Shown: positions 2,404 through 10,552 of the stretch, piece after piece
How the letters are laid out: every line of letters begins with the position of its first letter
How positions within the stretch are numbered: the stretch's first letter is position 1
DNA from: Escherichia phage ESCO5
Strand: one strand, 5' to 3'
Sequence record: NC_047776.2
DNA length: 64,000 nt
The notes under the pieces: model-generated
The model's input: only the letters and a program-made list of their open reading frames with translations
What the model was told of the DNA's origin: nothing
The model's database searches: none
Made by a program: the position numbers and the translations under genes

Positions 2404-2612
2404 TATTCCTCCTTAATTATTTCAAACTTGGCAACACCATTTACAATAATATGACCACAAGACATAACTCCTAGCCAAGGATCGCCGTTTTTCTTCAGGC
2501 GTTTACCGAATACATCACAAAAACCATTCTTCATTTCAGAGGCTTCATAAGAAGCCCCTTTATCAAAAACGTCTTTGAATGTGTCGATTATACCAACACA
2601 TTTCAAAATCAT
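2403..2612 (-). CDS. hypothetical protein
   Basis: 69-aa ORF, start overlaps nrdB stop. Confidence 0.4.
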   Translation of the reverse strand: MILKCVGIIDTFKDVFDKGASYEASEMKNGFCDVFGKRLKKNGDPWLGVMSCGHIIVNGVAKFEIIKEE

Positions 2613-3697
2613 TCGAAGTCAAGCTCCTCATCATCAGAGAGATCTTTGTTAGCTGAATTCAATTTGTAGTTAGTTAACTGAATCTCTTGGGCTGCTGACT
2701 GAATCAAATCAGGATTCAACCATTTTTCCATCCAAGCTAAAGGGCTATGTTTAGGTGCTTTAAACTTGGCTTTCATTTTCAATCGACGATAAATAGGAGC
2801 AGCATTGAAATAAACCCACTGTTTAGACAATTCGGCGTTAAGACCTACAATAAAACGACCTTCACTAAACAGGTAGTCACACCACTGTTCCTCTTGTTCA
2901 ACAACAGTGTCGAGGATCAAAGTCAACTCTTCAATATTGTCTTCGTAAATTTTACGCCAAATTGGGTCATGCATCAATGCATCAATTACAGCATAATCCA
3001 TCTTAACATGCAAGATTTCATCTAGCATAATTTTCTGGATCAGTTTACAAGCTCCAACAAACAGTTGTTGTTCTGCCATAGCAAAAGTAGCAGAGAAGGA
3101 AGATATAAACTGAATACCTTCTAACCCAATCAGGGCTACCATCCCTTTAAGAATCAGCAGTCGAAGTTCATCGTTAGCTTCAATCAATCCTAGAGCATAC
3201 TTATGACCAGCTTCTTCCAACTGACCCATGATATCAGCAATGATACCCATACGATTGAAAATTTTATCATTAATCATAATCTGATTGATGACTTCAATTG
3301 GATCTGGAGTACATTGACGGATTATTTCAGAATACGTTAACGCATGGAGAACTTCCATTTCACTCTGCTTCATCATCATAGCACAGGCTTCATTGTTACT
3401 CAAGAATGGAGAGAACAAAGTGATGATTGATTTTGCAAGAGAATCATTTTCCCATTGGAACGATAAGTTTTTAATCATAACATCATAGTTGTTTTTAGAA
3501 CAAGCTACGAAATCTTTACGTGTCTGATCCAAGTTAACTTCGTTTTCATCCCAATCTTGTGCTTTTTGAAGTTTGTAGAGTTTGTGCATTTCTGGATAAG
3601 TCACGTTAACAGAATCAAAGATCCCTAATTGCTCCCCCAAAAATACTGGATATTTCCCTGTCTTGTAAACTTCGTTGTGTAAATTAATTGCTGCCAT
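2609..3697 (-). CDS. nrdB: ribonucleotide reductase class Ia beta subunit (NrdB)
   Basis: 362 aa; ferritin-like di-iron R2 pattern (EEAGHKYAL...GLEGIQF...LDEILHVK); paired with nrdA. Confidence 0.9.
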   Translation of the reverse strand: MAAINLHNEVYKTGKYPVFLGEQLGIFDSVNVTYPEMHKLYKLQKAQDWDENEVNLDQTRKDFVACSKNNYDVMIKNLSFQWENDSLAKSIITLFSPFLSNNEACAMMMKQSEMEVLHALTYSEIIRQCTPDPIEVINQIMINDKIFNRMGIIADIMGQLEEAGHKYALGLIEANDELRLLILKGMVALIGLEGIQFISSFSATFAMAEQQLFVGACKLIQKIMLDEILHVKMDYAVIDALMHDPIWRKIYEDNIEELTLILDTVVEQEEQWCDYLFSEGRFIVGLNAELSKQWVYFNAAPIYRRLKMKAKFKAPKHSPLAWMEKWLNPDLIQSAAQEIQLTNYKLNSANKDLSDDEELDFE

Positions 3698-4022
3698 TTA
3701 AATCCTCCACTATTTCACAAAAACCTTTTAAGTTTAAAATATCTTGTTCCTCAACACCATTAATCCGGTAGAAACCTTCTAAGGCTTGCCATACGCTTCT
3801 ACCAAGTATAACAGTCACTGTTTCTTCACTTCTTGCTCTTGTTATTGCGTAAGCCGTAGCTTCTGGATAAAAAGATTCCCAAATCTGGATATTAGCTATT
3901 TGAAGTCCGCCAAGATAATGGTGACACCAAACAGGGGTAAAATCTTCAGGGGGAATCAACAAAGGCTTAAACCCAGGACGGTAGATTGGGGTTACTCCAG
4001 GTAAAACTATAAGTGTGCTCAT
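3684..4022 (-). CDS. hypothetical protein
   Basis: 112-aa ORF between the homing endonuclease and nrdB; RBS GAGGAGAG upstream. Confidence 0.45.
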   Translation of the reverse strand: MSTLIVLPGVTPIYRPGFKPLLIPPEDFTPVWCHHYLGGLQIANIQIWESFYPEATAYAITRARSEETVTVILGRSVWQALEGFYRINGVEEQDILNLKGFCEIVEDLNGSN

Positions 4023-4034
4023 AATCTCTCCTCA

Positions 4035-4057
4035 ATAAAAAAGGGGCCGAAGCCCCT
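4035..4057 (-). terminator. rho-independent terminator
   Basis: Minus strand GGGGC-TTCG-GCCCC hairpin followed by a T-run, just after the stop of 4064-4723. Confidence 0.55.
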
Positions 4058-4063
4058 GTATTG

Positions 4064-4723
4064 TTAGCCTCGGAATACTGTTTTTGTTTCTGCCAGATTG
4101 TAATAGAAATCCGACTTGTTTACAAGTGTTTTGTAAACATCCTTACAAAAATGATCTTCCTGTTTGTAACGTTCCGCTGTCTCTTTGATGGACTTGGCTT
4201 TATCCTTAAGCCAAGCAAAATGTGCTTCTTCTTCTGTTGCAAAGTATCCTAAATGTTTGCTCTTGCTACCAGAAGCTTTGGCATAAATTTTACCATCTCC
4301 TTTCCTGACGTGCGCTCCCAGTAAATACTTCCTTTCTGTTCTCTTTGAGAAACTCAAAAGGGTATTCACATACGGAGGAACAAATCTACAATATTCAGGG
4401 CAGTATACAGTATTACCTTCCAGAACAAGGTCTTTGTCTAAAACAAAACCTTCGACATTATGTTCTTGATACCAGGTATCAAAATTTGAGAAAGTAAACC
4501 AAGAATCACACACAGTAGTAAACTCATAACCAGGACGTGTGTCCTTCATTTTATAAGCCCTATCAAACATGTTCCTCCACGCTGCATAAGAAGGATCTAT
4601 GAAAGTGTTTACTCTCTTCCCATTAATGGTTCCCCCTTCCCACAGTCTACGATCTACGTCCACAATCAAGGGGATTTCTCCCCTCTCTGTGAGAACGGTA
4701 ACTTTACGTTTACCCTTCTTCAT
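4064..4723 (-). mobile_element. AP2-domain homing endonuclease-like gene inserted between nrdA and nrdB
   Basis: 219 aa; AP2-like segment GKIYAKASGSKSKHLGYFATEEEAHFAW; paralog of 21002-21607; nrd intergenic position is a classic homing-endonuclease site. Confidence 0.55.
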
Positions 4724-4734
4724 CTGTTCTCCTA

Positions 4735-6978
4735 CTACATTTTACAGGCACTACACCCTTCGTCTTCAGAATCTTCTTGTGCTAAAGAATCTGCTGATTT
4801 TGTTCTACTATTAAGGTAATACAATGATTTGCCACCCAGTCTAGCAAAATTCAGAATAAACTGCATCTCAGCTTTCACGGATAAACGTCCACCTACTAAT
4901 TTAGAATAATCTAGCCAAGAATCACAAGAAATTCCTTGGTCAGTAAATTTGGTAAAGATACCATACATTTCTGCAAGGTCTTTAGCCGGAGTATCCCAGG
5001 CAGATTGGTAGAACATTTTCAGTTTTTCGTAGTCTGGAACAATAAATAATACACTACCTTTCTGACTTTGTTTATACATAATGGTATCACGGACAGGATA
5101 CAGAGAGTTAGTAGTATTGCTTACCAAACTGCTGGACTCATTAGGTGCAATAGCAGCCAATACACTGTTACGGATACCACCTTGTTCAATGATTTCAGCA
5201 CGTAAGCCTTCCCAGTCCATTTTAAGATCAAAATTACCGATACTATCTACTGTTTTAGCATAGGTGTCAATTGGTAGCCAACCTTGAGGCCATTTGGTCT
5301 TATCGATCCATTCCGCATTACCTTTTTCCTTAGCCAGACGCAGAGAGGCTTTTGCCAACCAAAAGTAATGACGTTCTGCAAGTTCATGCATTAATTTTTT
5401 AGCATAAGCATCTGAATAATTTACAAAATTACTTGCCAAGTAATGCGCTAAGTTTGTAATACCTACACCAATAGATCTACGTGCTTTAGCAGTTATTTCG
5501 TTATGTTTAAATGGATAATCCATTGTTTCAATAACGTTGTCAATTGTCAATACAGTGTAGTATGCAACATCCTCATATTCTTCAGGTAATACACGACCAG
5601 CAACAATAGAAGATAAGAAGCATAAAGCCAATTCTTGATCTTCTGTATTCTCACCAGTAAAGAGATCCGGCATACTGTGGAAAGCTTTAGTTGGCAAGAA
5701 GATCTCTTGACACAGGTTTGATTGATACACCGTATCCAGGAAAGGTGTATGGTTGTTAACGTTGTCAGCAAAGAACATGTAAATACGTCCTGTTTCTGCA
5801 CGTTGAACAATAATCTCTGTCAGAAGATCACGAGCCTTAACAAATTTTTTCTTAATGCGACGACGACTTACTTTGTCATAAACTGCATCAAACTCTTCTT
5901 CACTTTTATATAAAGCTTCATAAAGTTCAGGAGCATCATCACAACTAACTAACATCCAGTCTTCGTTTTTTGCTGCTCGACGCAAGAACGAACGGTTAAC
6001 AACAATAGAATAATCTAGTTTATCCACTCGTTTATCTATAGGTGTTGTTGGATTCTTCAGTCGAATCAGATCGTCGAAGTCTGGTTCAAGTATGGTAAAG
6101 GTAACTGTAGCACTACCTCCACGGCTTGCTTGCTTTGAAGCTCCAACACTATCTTCCATCCATTTCAGATACGGAAGAAGACCACCGTGAATAATACGAT
6201 TATTCTTAACACCTTGACCTGTGGCACGAGTTTGAAGATTAACACCAATACCTGCGTTATTCAACGTATACTCATGAGCTAAGTAATTAGCAATGGCTAA
6301 AGACTCTGCCGTATCGTCTGCACGGAATAAACAACAAGACGCACTTCCTTTGATTGGAGTTCGTAGAGTTGTCAGATATGGCGATGGCAGATTAATCTTA
6401 AGATCGCTGACATAAGTATAAAGTTTTTTAATATCTTCTATACGGCGTTCTTTTGGTTGGATCTCCATAACCTTCATTGCGATACCAATGAAAAGGAACT
6501 GTGGAGACTCATGCACCACATCGTTTACTGCATCTCGAATAAGATATTTATCCACCATTTGACGTAAAACAGAATAACCATAAGTTAGATTTTTATTATG
6601 CTTTACAATCTTACCGATTTCTTTGATCTCTTCATCAGTATAATCCATTTTAGCCCAATGACCACGTTCTACCATATCATGATAAAAGGTATTCAGTGAA
6701 GGGATACTGTGGTATCCCCCATGAGCCTGTTTGTAAATCATACCCAGAAGAAGTCTTCCTGCCATATCACTGTAAGCTTGTGTTTTCTTGTCAATACACG
6801 CTGCAATCATTGCTTTATGCAGATCACGTGTAGACACACCGTCATAACACCGCTTCACAGCTTCTAATTCAATTTCAGACCAGTTTAGTTTACCTGCTGC
6901 AAATTCAGACCACTTGCGAAGTTTTTCTGGGTTAAACTCCTCTGTCTTACCATTAGATTTAGTTACAAAACGAATCAA
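4735..6978 (-). CDS. nrdA: ribonucleotide reductase class Ia alpha subunit (NrdA)
   Basis: 747 aa; N-terminal ATP-cone-like segment, then large catalytic domain; adjacent to nrdB. Confidence 0.9.
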   Translation of the reverse strand: MIRFVTKSNGKTEEFNPEKLRKWSEFAAGKLNWSEIELEAVKRCYDGVSTRDLHKAMIAACIDKKTQAYSDMAGRLLLGMIYKQAHGGYHSIPSLNTFYHDMVERGHWAKMDYTDEEIKEIGKIVKHNKNLTYGYSVLRQMVDKYLIRDAVNDVVHESPQFLFIGIAMKVMEIQPKERRIEDIKKLYTYVSDLKINLPSPYLTTLRTPIKGSASCCLFRADDTAESLAIANYLAHEYTLNNAGIGVNLQTRATGQGVKNNRIIHGGLLPYLKWMEDSVGASKQASRGGSATVTFTILEPDFDDLIRLKNPTTPIDKRVDKLDYSIVVNRSFLRRAAKNEDWMLVSCDDAPELYEALYKSEEEFDAVYDKVSRRRIKKKFVKARDLLTEIIVQRAETGRIYMFFADNVNNHTPFLDTVYQSNLCQEIFLPTKAFHSMPDLFTGENTEDQELALCFLSSIVAGRVLPEEYEDVAYYTVLTIDNVIETMDYPFKHNEITAKARRSIGVGITNLAHYLASNFVNYSDAYAKKLMHELAERHYFWLAKASLRLAKEKGNAEWIDKTKWPQGWLPIDTYAKTVDSIGNFDLKMDWEGLRAEIIEQGGIRNSVLAAIAPNESSSLVSNTTNSLYPVRDTIMYKQSQKGSVLFIVPDYEKLKMFYQSAWDTPAKDLAEMYGIFTKFTDQGISCDSWLDYSKLVGGRLSVKAEMQFILNFARLGGKSLYYLNSRTKSADSLAQEDSEDEGCSACKM

Positions 6979-6994: not shown

Positions 6995-7249
6995 TTAATG
7001 CATATTCAAAACATCTACATCATAACCGAACTTCATTTCATTAAAAAGTCCATTAGCATATAGAAAACCTTCAAAATGAGTTATGTCATCAAACCCTTTT
7101 GCTTTTGCTCGACGATCTGCTTCTTGTCTTTTAGGAGATAAACGTTTTGAAGTGTCTAGAATTACAGTTACATTACAACCAATAGTTTCATCAAAATAGA
7201 CTTCGATTTCACAGCCTTCATATTTATTATCAGTCATTGTCCCTCTCAT
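6995..7249 (-). CDS. hypothetical protein
   Basis: 84-aa ORF. Confidence 0.4.
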   Translation of the reverse strand: MRGTMTDNKYEGCEIEVYFDETIGCNVTVILDTSKRLSPKRQEADRRAKAKGFDDITHFEGFLYANGLFNEMKFGYDVDVLNMH

Positions 7250-7689
7250 TGATTAGTATCATCTGCTTTCGCAGGATCATAAGAGTTACCGAAATCATCC
7301 ATCTTAATATGTGACGCACCCCAACCTGTAAATTCTTCATCACCAAAATGAAAAATATCATTTTCTTGATAGATTCGTTTAAAACCACAATTAGGTGAAA
7401 CAGGGAAAGTGAAAAGCGTTGTATTTGCAAACACTACTCGCTTATCGTTATTGCTTCGGATATTCACATTACGCTCAACAGAATAGTGTGAATCTTCAGC
7501 CATACCCAGCATTACAAGCGACGCTCTAATAACAGCATTTTGTTTCTCGTGTGGAATATTGCCATTGTGTTTATTTGATTCTAGTTTCCAGATAGGGGTA
7601 GACATTACAGTAGACATGCTTACGGTAGCCCAAGTTGTAGTATTTACTAATGACATATTTTCTCCTTCGTTTTGAATGGGAGGACTCAC
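7246..7689 (-). CDS. hypothetical protein
   Basis: 147-aa ORF. Confidence 0.4.
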   Translation of the reverse strand: MSPPIQNEGENMSLVNTTTWATVSMSTVMSTPIWKLESNKHNGNIPHEKQNAVIRASLVMLGMAEDSHYSVERNVNIRSNNDKRVVFANTTLFTFPVSPNCGFKRIYQENDIFHFGDEEFTGWGASHIKMDDFGNSYDPAKADDTNQ

Positions 7690-7754
7690 CTCCTCCCAGT
7701 ATTGTGCTATATTATACTAAAACTAATACTAAAGTCAATAACTATTTAAACAGA

Positions 7755-8753
7755 TCACCATTTAGTATGATTTGTTAAAAGTTGACGATGTTGAATCCAA
7801 CCTTTGAAATTGCCAGACCAAAACTTACCATTACGATCTACATGGGTAATACCTGGTTCCCAAGAGTTAAAATCCCAGGGAGCATTGATAAACAAATCTT
7901 CAAAACAGTTCTCTCCGTATTGTTCGCATGTTTCTTGCATTGGGGTGGCTTGATGTTCAAACGGAGAAGCATGAACCTTACGCCCAGTCAGCAAACGACC
8001 ATAGATATCTAAAGCTTTATCTTTAGTTGCATTCAAACGACGATAGCTAACCTGTGCACAACACGAAGCTGAAATAGCTTTGGCTTCTTCCAAAGTAAGC
8101 ACAACAACTTCTCCAGATTCATCTTGAACATAGTATCCACCAAAAACAAAATGATCGTCACCTTCTGTGCCAATATTATCATAGAAATGGTCTACATAAG
8201 GTGTGTGCCATTGCCCTGGTTTCAGCACTTCTGGTGTAGATTCTTCATACTCTTTGTGCATCTCTTTAGCCAAAGCTTCGATAGTAGGATCGGCTTCTTT
8301 GTCATCACGTAGCCACCAGAAATTTTCATATTCTGTTGCTGTCAGAACTGTTTTAATTCGTTGGAAAGGTTCCAGAAGACGGTTTGCAACTTGTTTGTGG
8401 TACCCTGCCAAAGAGAATTCTTCTGCAAAACGTGCTGCACTAAGCGCGGCAAGATCCCACCACTCTTGAGCAGTATAACCTGCATCAATAAGAGCATCAT
8501 GGTCAACACCTTTGTCCTGCATACCAGGTTGGTTAGCCCCAAAACGATAAGGACGAGCAGGCTGATTTCGCACCATTTCGATCAGTGTTTTAACAGGTAT
8601 AGCACGGCTAGAAGCAGCGTTACGACTGAACAGGCGGTGAGTCATCAGTTCTGAATGAATAATACGTGGATATTCAAGTTCGAAAGTTACAATCTCTTTT
8701 CCGTCTTCAGTGATGGAATGTGCAATAATACTAGCCGAAATCTGTTTTGTCAT
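7755..8753 (-). CDS. ThyX-like flavin-dependent thymidylate synthase family protein (divergent)
   Basis: 332 aa; THRLFSRNAASSR resembles the ThyX signature RHRxxSxNxxSxR but with T for the first R; longer than typical ThyX. Confidence 0.5.
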   Translation of the reverse strand: MTKQISASIIAHSITEDGKEIVTFELEYPRIIHSELMTHRLFSRNAASSRAIPVKTLIEMVRNQPARPYRFGANQPGMQDKGVDHDALIDAGYTAQEWWDLAALSAARFAEEFSLAGYHKQVANRLLEPFQRIKTVLTATEYENFWWLRDDKEADPTIEALAKEMHKEYEESTPEVLKPGQWHTPYVDHFYDNIGTEGDDHFVFGGYYVQDESGEVVVLTLEEAKAISASCCAQVSYRRLNATKDKALDIYGRLLTGRKVHASPFEHQATPMQETCEQYGENCFEDLFINAPWDFNSWEPGITHVDRNGKFWSGNFKGWIQHRQLLTNHTKW

Positions 8754-8762
8754 TTTTTCTCC

Positions 8763-9371
8763 TTAGTTTTTAAAATTGTTCAAAGTGTTAAAAACATCCA
8801 AACATGTTAGCCACTGATCTTCTAAACCTGTGATCACAACGTTTGGTTTTTTCTTTAGTTCTTCTAGATGGTTATCTTTATAAGGTGTATTAAAATATAT
8901 TTTAACTACTTCATCCGGAAAATATAATAGGTTATCAGCCCTGTCATCTATTGCTATATCACAAGGTAATAAGTATTTTTCTTTCGTAGCAAAAAAGCCG
9001 TTACCAGATCCTTTGCTAAAATCAATCGTATCTAATGTTCTTAAAACATGTTTATGTTTAGAACTTAAGTGACCACCTTTTGTCACACTCGCGATCAAAA
9101 GATTGCTACCTTTCCTTGAAACATACTTTAAGAAATCTGGCATACCTGGAACAAAACCCATTGTATCGTAGAGATGAGGATTATCCAGAAATCCGTAAGG
9201 ATCTATGTTGAACTCTTCCCTGAAACCAGGAAAATAGTTGGTAAGATCATAATCTGCATTTTTTGTGAATGTGTCGATTTTAACACCAAGGCCACTAATC
9301 TTATTCAACCATTCTAACCAAGCAACATCTAACGGAGCCACAACTAAATCCCAATCACATACTATCTGCAT
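8763..9371 (-). CDS. HAD-like 5'(3')-deoxyribonucleotidase (putative)
   Basis: 202 aa; N-terminal IVCDWDLVV is a DxDxV HAD motif. Confidence 0.45.
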   Translation of the reverse strand: MQIVCDWDLVVAPLDVAWLEWLNKISGLGVKIDTFTKNADYDLTNYFPGFREEFNIDPYGFLDNPHLYDTMGFVPGMPDFLKYVSRKGSNLLIASVTKGGHLSSKHKHVLRTLDTIDFSKGSGNGFFATKEKYLLPCDIAIDDRADNLLYFPDEVVKIYFNTPYKDNHLEELKKKPNVVITGLEDQWLTCLDVFNTLNNFKN

Positions 9372-10150: not shown

Positions 10151-10552
10151 TTAGTATTGCTCGCCACTAATACGTTCCTTAAGTTGTTTAATAGCTTCGA
10201 TTGCATCTACATAAGAAGAGTTATACATGTGTTTCAGTGCTACTCGTATTAAAGGATCTTTTGTGAAGAAATCAATAAGAAGCATAGCTTGATCATGTTT
10301 AGCTGCATTTGTCATAGATGGATAATTTTCACGAACCATATACGTGTTATTTTGCATAAGGGTTCTTTCTAGTTCAATACAATGAATAGCTTTATCTAGG
10401 TTAATCTGACGTTCACCTTTAATACGTGTTGCGTATTTTGCCAATTTGCAAAAACAAGGTGTGCCACCAACCAAATAAGCTAGTTCAATAGGTTGCATTG
10501 CCATTTTTGTGTAGTGATCACCGTCAACCTGATTATCAAAAGCATTAGACAT
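10151..10552 (-). CDS. hypothetical protein
   Basis: 133-aa ORF with GDHY motif near N-terminus. Confidence 0.4.
   Translation of the reverse strand: MSNAFDNQVDGDHYTKMAMQPIELAYLVGGTPCFCKLAKYATRIKGERQINLDKAIHCIELERTLMQNNTYMVRENYPSMTNAAKHDQAMLLIDFFTKDPLIRVALKHMYNSSYVDAIEAIKQLKERISGEQY

Follow-up and report, generated by a model that had tools for sequence, protein, structure and literature searches.

A probable flavin-dependent thymidylate synthase with a rearranged chain in Escherichia phage ESCO5 and a wide range of other phages

The Gene and Its Relationship to ThyX

The window analyzed here is a 64,000-nucleotide stretch of DNA from Escherichia phage ESCO5 (NC_047776.2), and the gene under study is a single open reading frame (ORF) at positions 7755-8753 on its minus strand, which runs from an ATG at 8753 to a TGA stop at 7757-7755 and encodes a complete, ThyX-type product of 332 amino acids (aa) with a rearranged chain. 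Escherichia phage vB_EcoM_REC (OM386667.1; Phapecoctavirus, Stephanstirmvirinae) matches the stretch at 100% identity and carries the gene under the annotation REC_00172, "putative thymidylate synthase", and another 63 records reach at least 95% identity. The gene is therefore already known and annotated, and at issue are the correctness of that annotation and the meaning of the oddities of the protein. Comparison of the vB_EcoM_REC gene with that of phage phAPEC8_ev052 revealed 16 nucleotide differences and no amino acid differences, and the gene is thus under purifying selection.

A first-pass annotation, made from the DNA sequence alone, had proposed a relationship with the flavin-dependent thymidylate synthase (FDTS) ThyX, and this relationship holds. 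The Pfam Thy1 profile (PF02511) is matched at 35.0 bits against a gathering cut-off of 24.8, with residues 22-175 aligning to profile positions 59-191 of 191, and the PHROG_85 family ("thymidylate synthase") is matched at 368 bits. Canonical ThyX is too distant in sequence for BLAST or HMMER against PDB sequences to make the connection, and the tie to ThyX needed profile-profile and structure comparison. In the latter, every top match was of ThyX type, comprising M. tuberculosis ThyX (2af6, score 10.8), PolB, a ThyX-type UMP/dUMP methylase (4p5a, 10.4), T. maritima ThyX (5chp, 9.7), PBCV-1 ThyX (4fzb, 9.0) and H. pylori ThyX (3ah5, 8.8). Such a likeness to ThyX greatly exceeds chance. Likeness to ThyA was absent, in that the protein has no ThyA-family Pfam match and a tblastn search with E. 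coli ThyA gave a best E-value of 0.38 in 150.6 kb of the phage genome. The protein belongs to the ThyX superfamily, yet it is no canonical ThyX, because three defining features are lacking: the equivalog score, the first arginine of the ThyX motif together with Tyr91 (T. maritima residue numbers), and the canonical order of segments.

Segment Order and Extra Length

Canonical ThyX is exemplified by T. maritima TM0449 (PDB 1KQ4/1O26) and the enzymes from M. tuberculosis (2AF6), H. pylori (3AH5) and chlorovirus PBCV-1 (A674R, 2CFA/4FZB). The reference sequences used for the first three are 100% identical to the PDB chains, and the residue numbers of S88, Y91 and R174 agree with those of mutant entries; these three, C. 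glutamicum ThyX and 30 relatives made up the canonical alignment. Aligning the phage family with it by hhalign yielded two matches. The first places residues 21-178 on T. maritima ThyX 61-203 (probability 96.4%, E = 1.2e-9) and, with the Pfam match, defines a ThyX core of residues 20-180 (8214-8696, minus strand) that is collinear with the canonical enzyme. The second places residues 227-272 on T. maritima ThyX 21-64 (probability 80.8%, E = 1.3e-5). Because the two matches occur in swapped order, the segment found ahead of the core of canonical ThyX, running from S30 to H53, comes after the core in the phage protein, where it occupies residues 220-267 (7953-8096, minus strand). When columns 220-267 were placed ahead of columns 20-180 in silico, the two matches fused into a single uninterrupted alignment covering T. 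maritima ThyX 21-201 over 178 columns, with a probability of 98.7%, an E-value of 2e-16 and a score of 109, versus a score of 71 (E = 1.2e-9) without re-ordering. Moving residues 268-332 or 180-226 to the front as controls brought no gain in score. A plain canonical ThyX hidden Markov model (HMM) searched with hmmsearch likewise recovered both pieces, with their order reversed, from 219 of 249 family members, with weak E-values for the second piece (median 0.39, best 2e-5). The relocated segment is thus detected by hhalign and only weakly by the canonical HMM, and Pfam returned no match when only the C-terminal 153 residues were scanned. The alignment can also be extended over an N-terminal strand at residues 6-14, a candidate for canonical strand β1/2, with an essentially flat score (108.9 vs 108.7); if that strand is the canonical one, the rearrangement would be a translocation of the helical segment and not a strict circular permutation.

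The first-pass annotation had also noted that the protein is longer than typical ThyX, and it exceeds the solved enzymes from H. pylori (208 aa), T. maritima (220 aa) and M. tuberculosis (250 aa) by 82-124 aa. The excess is real, although it is not a mere extension. It is made up of the rearranged segment order together with three elements, ~110 residues in all, that canonical ThyX lacks and that carry invariants of their own (G77-M78, H183 and R323). The first, seen as a gap in the hhalign alignment, is a 30-aa insertion after the ThyX motif (residues 64-94; 8472-8564, minus strand) with an invariant G77-M78 and predicted strands at 72-74 and 80-84 that would form a small β-hairpin without a canonical counterpart. 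A linker and β-rich region follows the core (residues 181-219; 8097-8213, minus strand), with predicted strands at 188-193, 202-210 and 216-219 and an invariant H183-x-P185; no equivalent of this region was detected in canonical ThyX, and it adds nothing to the alignment score. The chain ends in a 65-aa tail (residues 268-332; 7758-7952, minus strand) that is recognized by its conservation pattern, N315 ... G-W-x-Q321-x-R323, and finds no counterpart in the alignment to canonical ThyX. Within a set of 128 representatives, one per 50%-identity cluster and 37-55% identical to the query, H183 is present in 128/128 and P185 in 127/128, and in the tail N315 is found in 112, Q321 in 115 and R323 in 120/120 (here and below, a second number is the non-gap total). 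Neither the rearranged order, nor a permuted ThyX, nor the Thr/Ala signature detailed below was found described in the open-access literature, and the architecture is apparently undescribed.

Active-Site Residues

Profile alignment to T. maritima ThyX places the ThyX motif at residues 38-51 (THRLFSRNAASSRA; 8601-8642, minus strand), which contain, as residues 38-50, exactly the string THRLFSRNAASSR cited in the first-pass annotation. In this region H39, R40, N45, S48 and R50 correspond to H79, R80, N85, S88 and R90 and are kept. A second active-site region (residues 120-153; 8295-8396, minus strand), assigned by the same alignment and by conservation, contains the invariant K120 and retains R125, N144 and R149 in the places of R147, N169 and R174, while the relocated segment supplies S236, H261, S263 and E266 in the places of S30, H53, T55 (Ser for Thr) and E58. 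The phage protein thus shares with canonical ThyX both the nucleotide set (S88, R90, R147, N169, R174) and the flavin/folate set (S30, H53, T55, E58, N85). It differs at six positions, with T38 for R78, A46 for E86, A51 for Y91, T138 for N163, T140 for R165 and E153 for H178.

Both the kept and the replaced states are family properties. The equivalents of S88, R90, R147 and R174, which bind or activate deoxyuridine monophosphate (dUMP), are found in 125-128 of the 128 representatives (S48 125, R50 126/126, R125 127, R149 128), and those of S30, H53, T55 and E58 in 121-128 (S236 128, H261 128, S263 126, E266 121). Similarly high counts were obtained for T38 (122), H39 (126/126), A51 (126/126), G77-M78 (128), K120 (127), T140 (125) and N144 (127); R40 is looser (101/128). 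Position 38 is Arg or Lys in four members, two of which have the full R-H-R. The first-pass annotation was accordingly right that the first Arg of R-H-R is Thr, since the alignment puts T38 on R78, but not in treating Thr as peculiar to this protein; because 122 of 128 representatives share it, Thr is the family state and not a lesion in one gene. R147 (R125 in the phage protein) is a contact to the dUMP phosphate, and N163, R165 and H178 reportedly contact the ADP part of flavin adenine dinucleotide (FAD) in the 2003 paper on the T. maritima structure. With T38 in place, the ThyX motif R-H-R-x7-S (Myllykallio 2002, as quoted in PMC2826268) becomes T-H-R-x7-S, a single mismatch; the motif filter of Stern et al. 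tolerates up to two and would accept it.

The two replaced residues with the best described roles are R78 and Y91. In reduced T. maritima ThyX, R78 faces N1/C2=O of the flavin hydroquinone (PMC11940539), and it is also listed as a hydrogen-bonding partner of dUMP (PMC3498832). For Y91 a role as general acid has been proposed, and its mutants are 100-1000-fold slower (PMC8316439, PMC11940539); together with N85, Y91 holds H53, which stacks on flavin or folate, while S30 binds flavin C4=O (PMC11940539); R174 activates the uracil of dUMP (PMC8316439). Either the roles of R78 and Y91 have been taken over by clade-specific residues, or they may be dispensable, or the chemistry may differ. Candidates to take them over would be R323, K120, H183 and the G77-M78 loop, with R323 a conceivable replacement for the lost charge of R78. 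Co-variation with the rare variants lacking Thr38 or Arg40, in which a compensating residue was sought, gave no signal.

Distribution and Inteins

The nearly fixed signature T-H-R-x7-S-S-R-A marks a large clade. Relatives were found by tblastn in 1,033 of 50,697 phage records, including phAPEC8-like, rV5-like, phi92-like, N4-like (G7C, DSS3phi2) and phiCbK-like phages, ICP1, Pakpunavirus, Flavobacterium phages and others. The "putative thymidylate synthase" of N4 (gp30), ICP1, rV5, phAPEC8, PAK_P1-like phages, phiCbK and N4-like roseophages (PHROG_85) belongs to this clade; these proteins share 28-73% identity with the ESCO5 product (most 31-73%) over nearly the full length, rising to as much as 100% within Phapecoctavirus, show no structural difference from it and are annotated by similarity only. 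An HMMER search of 1.84 billion cluster representatives returned at least 5,000 at E ≤ 1e-3 and at least 1,634 50%-identity clusters at E ≤ 1e-30. A pattern scan based on an alignment of closer relatives, covering one genome per species from 185,579 bacterial and archaeal species, found 10 loci, all on metagenome-assembled genome (MAG) contigs of 7-130 kb, so that no cellular organism demonstrably depends on the rearranged form. The clade looks essentially viral.

Many metagenomic members carry inteins of ~310-340 aa with HNH or LAGLIDADG domains (P0128, P0135, P0143, P0149, P0152, P0168, P0187, P0209, P0215, P0216, P0218, P0227, P0250, P0254 and P0255). The inteins occupy four sites, all inside the three conserved motifs: after H33, after R40 (MTHR/C...HN/CFSRN, with slashes at the junctions), after residue 151 beside R149, and after H261 (H/C...GN/SSPFEHQ), the last being the relocated His motif. 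Homing of inteins is typically directed at those functional motifs that are conserved best, and their presence here points to the relocated His motif and the core motifs as functionally critical. Relatives of 520-680 aa with two separate matching stretches were considered as tandem duplications, from which a circular permutation might have arisen, but this reading was rejected, as they are intein-containing genes.

Nucleotide-Supply Genes Around the ThyX-Type Gene

The neighbors are as the first-pass annotation had described them. Directly upstream on the minus strand lies a gene for a 202-aa NT5C-type 5'-deoxynucleotidase-like protein (8763-9371; Pfam PF06941, 26.1 bits vs a cut-off of 24.8), the counterpart of which is annotated "deoxyribonucleotidase" in phAPEC8_ev052, and genes for deoxythymidine diphosphate (dTDP)-glucose/rhamnose synthesis lie at 1-1771 and upstream. 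Read directly from the sequence, the Shine-Dalgarno motif of the ThyX-type gene is AAGGAG at 8759-8764 (8764-8759 in reading direction, minus strand), with 5 nucleotides (nt) between it and the ATG. It shares bases with the TAA stop (8765-8763) of the NT5C-like gene, an arrangement suggestive of translational coupling between the two genes. Placing a nucleotidase beside an enzyme that would produce deoxythymidine monophosphate (dTMP) is a counter-intuitive pairing. The same minus-strand block holds, by annotation, the α (4735-6978) and β (2609-3697) subunits of a class Ia ribonucleotide reductase (RNR), as well as a MazG-like nucleotide pyrophosphohydrolase, a DNA ligase and exonucleases.

ThyA, canonical ThyX, dihydrofolate reductase (DHFR) and Dut were all absent by tblastn from 150.6 of the 156.3 kb of the genome. 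Since neither ThyA nor canonical ThyX is found there, the gene is the only thymidylate synthase candidate of the phage. ThyX chemistry yields tetrahydrofolate (THF) rather than dihydrofolate (DHF), and for this reason a genome lacking DHFR fits it; canonical thyX genes have the same kind of context, with no DHFR partner. Elsewhere in the clade, RNR lies ~3 kb downstream of the gene in ICP1, a G7C-like phage has a dCTP deaminase 1.5 kb upstream of it, and in the phiCbK-like phage CcrMagneto a deoxynucleoside monophosphate (dNMP) kinase adjoins the gene with RNR nearby. Likewise, thyX and dCMP deaminase occur together in the same four roseophage genera (PMC11934525) and in Pakpunavirus (PMC12846349). 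This context points to dTMP synthesis. The link to dTDP-sugar genes, to which the first-pass annotation had attached weight, is not a property of the family, as no such genes are present in the stretches read of ICP1, N4-like, rV5-like, Pakpunavirus and phiCbK-like phages. The E. coli host has a G+C content of roughly 51%. Phapecoctavirus genomes are at ~39% (PMC7552041), and because this is well below the host value, an extra supply of dTTP makes sense.

Function and Alternative Explanations

Taken together, we consider that the protein probably works as a flavin-dependent thymidylate synthase and belongs to a branch of ThyX that is specific to viruses and rearranged in sequence. Of the two possibilities raised in the first-pass annotation, a functional but divergent thymidylate synthase or a repurposed enzyme, the former is the better supported, because the ThyX fold, the dUMP and flavin/folate residues other than R78 and Y91, purifying selection and the setting among deoxynucleotide genes all favor it, while the support for the latter is indirect. 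Several observations weigh against a working synthase nonetheless. The sequence evidence for ThyX, though real, is weak and partial: the NCBIfam thyX equivalog model (TIGR02170) gives 31.6 bits, far from its cut-off of 87.9, and the Pfam Thy1 match covers only part of the profile. Sequence searches of the PDB retrieved no solved ThyX, either with the single protein or with a 33-sequence family profile. The loss of R78 and Y91 to T38 and A51 is family-wide, the equivalents of N163, R165 and H178 are replaced as well, and no assay of any clade member was found in the open-access literature.

The absence of R78, the stabilizer of reduced flavin, and of Y91 throughout the clade is what an enzyme repurposed for other C5 chemistry might display, for example a dUMP hydroxymethylase that stops at the exocyclic-methylene/hydroxymethyl stage and delivers 5-hydroxymethyl-dUMP (5-hmdUMP) for modified DNA; in Phapecoctavirus, the resulting base might be rhamnosylated through the neighboring dTDP-rhamnose pathway. 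The dTDP-rhamnose genes and the NT5C-like nucleotidase do lie in the same DNA-metabolism block, and Olsen et al. (2020) speculated on rhamnose glycosylation of hydroxymethylated nucleotides in these phages (PMC7552041), which would need a hydroxymethylase, for which the ThyX-type gene would be the only candidate. Functional analogues exist in the dUMP/dCMP hydroxymethylases of SPO1, T4, M6 and ViI type (PMC8989533), but these belong to the ThyA family, unrelated in fold and chemistry, with folate as reductant or none, and the literature searched contained no ThyX-derived hydroxymethylase. We nevertheless regard such repurposing as unlikely, as the same Thr/Ala signature recurs in 1,033 phage genomes and the stretches read of ICP1, N4-like, rV5-like, Pakpunavirus and phiCbK-like phages hold no sugar-nucleotide genes, while the immediate neighborhood of the gene yielded no glycosyltransferase, hmdUMP kinase or dTTP-exclusion enzyme. 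Moreover, Vequintavirinae and their relatives, among them the phi92-like phages that possess dTDP machinery, are "exceptionally susceptible" to restriction-modification systems, without effective protection despite this machinery (Maffei et al., PMC8594841), and a protective base modification is for that reason not evident. The co-occurrence of the clade gene with dCMP/dCTP deaminases and a dNMP kinase is what plain dTMP synthesis predicts, and the rare members with R-H-R suggest that Thr and Arg are interchangeable within one function. In its specific rhamnosyl-hmdU form, in which the whole T-H-R...S-S-R-A clade would be non-reductive, making 5-methylene- or 5-hydroxymethyl-dUMP or performing other flavin/one-carbon chemistry, with a rhamnosylated thymidine replacement in Phapecoctavirus and phi92-like phages, the proposal is very improbable.

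A change of substrate instead of chemistry, with methylation of UMP, dCMP or uracil in nucleic acid in place of dTMP synthesis, has precedents in the RNA flavin methyltransferases and in PolB, the UMP/dUMP methylase of polyoxin biosynthesis (Streptomyces cacaoi, 4P5A). PolB, however, is a ThyX of canonical order (E = 3.7e-34 to T. maritima ThyX) that is no closer to the clade than other ThyX enzymes are, and it is encoded in an antibiotic gene cluster, whereas the clade gene sits among phage deoxynucleotide genes (RNR, deaminases, dNMP kinase) and not in a setting of RNA or antibiotic biosynthesis. With the positions by which ThyX recognizes uracil and the 5'-phosphate (S48, R50, R125 and R149) invariant, we find this explanation quite improbable. 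Least probable of those considered is a ThyX relic that has lost catalysis and persists as a regulator binding nucleotide or flavin, or as a decoy, for instance against host defenses that sense or deplete nucleotides. The two missing catalytic residues and the failed TIGR02170 cut-off would suit a relic, and E. coli has ThyA, so that a phage enzyme is not strictly required; yet about twenty active-site-equivalent positions are invariant in representatives only 37-55% identical to the query, purifying selection is strong, inteins target the catalytic motifs, and the gene has been retained in thousands of virulent phages, a pattern that suits an enzyme better than a binder.

If the protein is the working thymidylate synthase that we favor, it would catalyze dUMP + CH2-THF + NAD(P)H → dTMP + THF and would presumably assemble as an oligomer like ThyX, which is a homotetramer with bound FAD in which three subunits contribute to each active site. 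FAD would be held in the active site with dUMP stacked on the reduced flavin and its uracil activated by R149, and the methylene group would be relayed from the folate via flavin N5 to C5 and then reduced to methyl. Acting with the ribonucleotide reductases of the phage, the enzyme could raise dTTP for the 39% G+C genome and for the dTDP-sugar pathway, and could do so with no need for DHFR.

Implications

Large virulent phages of Gram-negative bacteria probably have in the rearranged clade their commonest thymidylate synthase, and, though widespread, it has been annotated purely on weak similarity. The gene is ordinary in role, unexpectedly different in construction and very widespread. If its product is active, the clade constitutes a natural experiment on the ThyX mechanism, in which the active site still forms from a rearranged chain while R78 and Y91 are dispensable or substituted, with a bearing on the design of inhibitors of ThyX, an antibacterial target, and on the reliability of "thyX" auxiliary metabolic gene calls in viromes. 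Conversely, if it is no plain dTMP synthase, thousands of phage genome annotations share one error, and a non-reductive, rhamnosylating system, if true, would mark the first path to hypermodified DNA that derives from ThyX.

Other Features of the Region

The phage has a complete dTDP-rhamnose pathway (rmlA, rmlB, rmlC and rmlD) that lies with a glutaredoxin gene in the DNA-metabolism block (1-1771; OM386667.1 32966-36244), and on its target, be it DNA, a virion protein or the host surface, the literature only speculates. Outside the window, the genome further encodes a class III anaerobic RNR and its activase (OM386667.1 125250-127087 and 142314-142856) as well as small ORFs annotated as fragments of GTP cyclohydrolase II, orotate phosphoribosyltransferase and PRPP synthetase, a heavy investment of the phage in nucleotide supply. 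A 133-aa ORF at 10151-10552 (minus strand), starting MSNAFDNQVDGDHYTKMAMQPIE, resembles by eye the DUF3310/T7 gp1.7-type nucleotide-kinase motif mentioned for Pakpunavirus; it has no Pfam match at E ≤ 0.01, and its PHROG matches are all to families with no assigned function.

Between the genes for RNR β and α (3684-4723, minus strand) lie two ORFs, one of 219 aa for an HNH endonuclease (4064-4723; PHROG_953, 193 bits) and one of 112 aa (3684-4022). Both are extra in vB_EcoM_REC, as phAPEC8_ev052 has its RNR genes side by side, and the pair of ORFs looks like a mobile homing-endonuclease insertion. Directly downstream of the stop codon of the ThyX-type gene is a near-consensus σ70-type promoter (7711-7738, minus strand), with TTGACT at 7738-7733 and TATAAT at 7716-7711 separated by 16 nt. 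The TATAAT is followed by a ribosome-binding site, GGGAGGAGG, and then by the GTG start (7689) of a 147-aa ORF (7246-7689; PHROG_15711, function not assigned), so that the genes downstream of the ThyX-type gene may have a promoter of their own.

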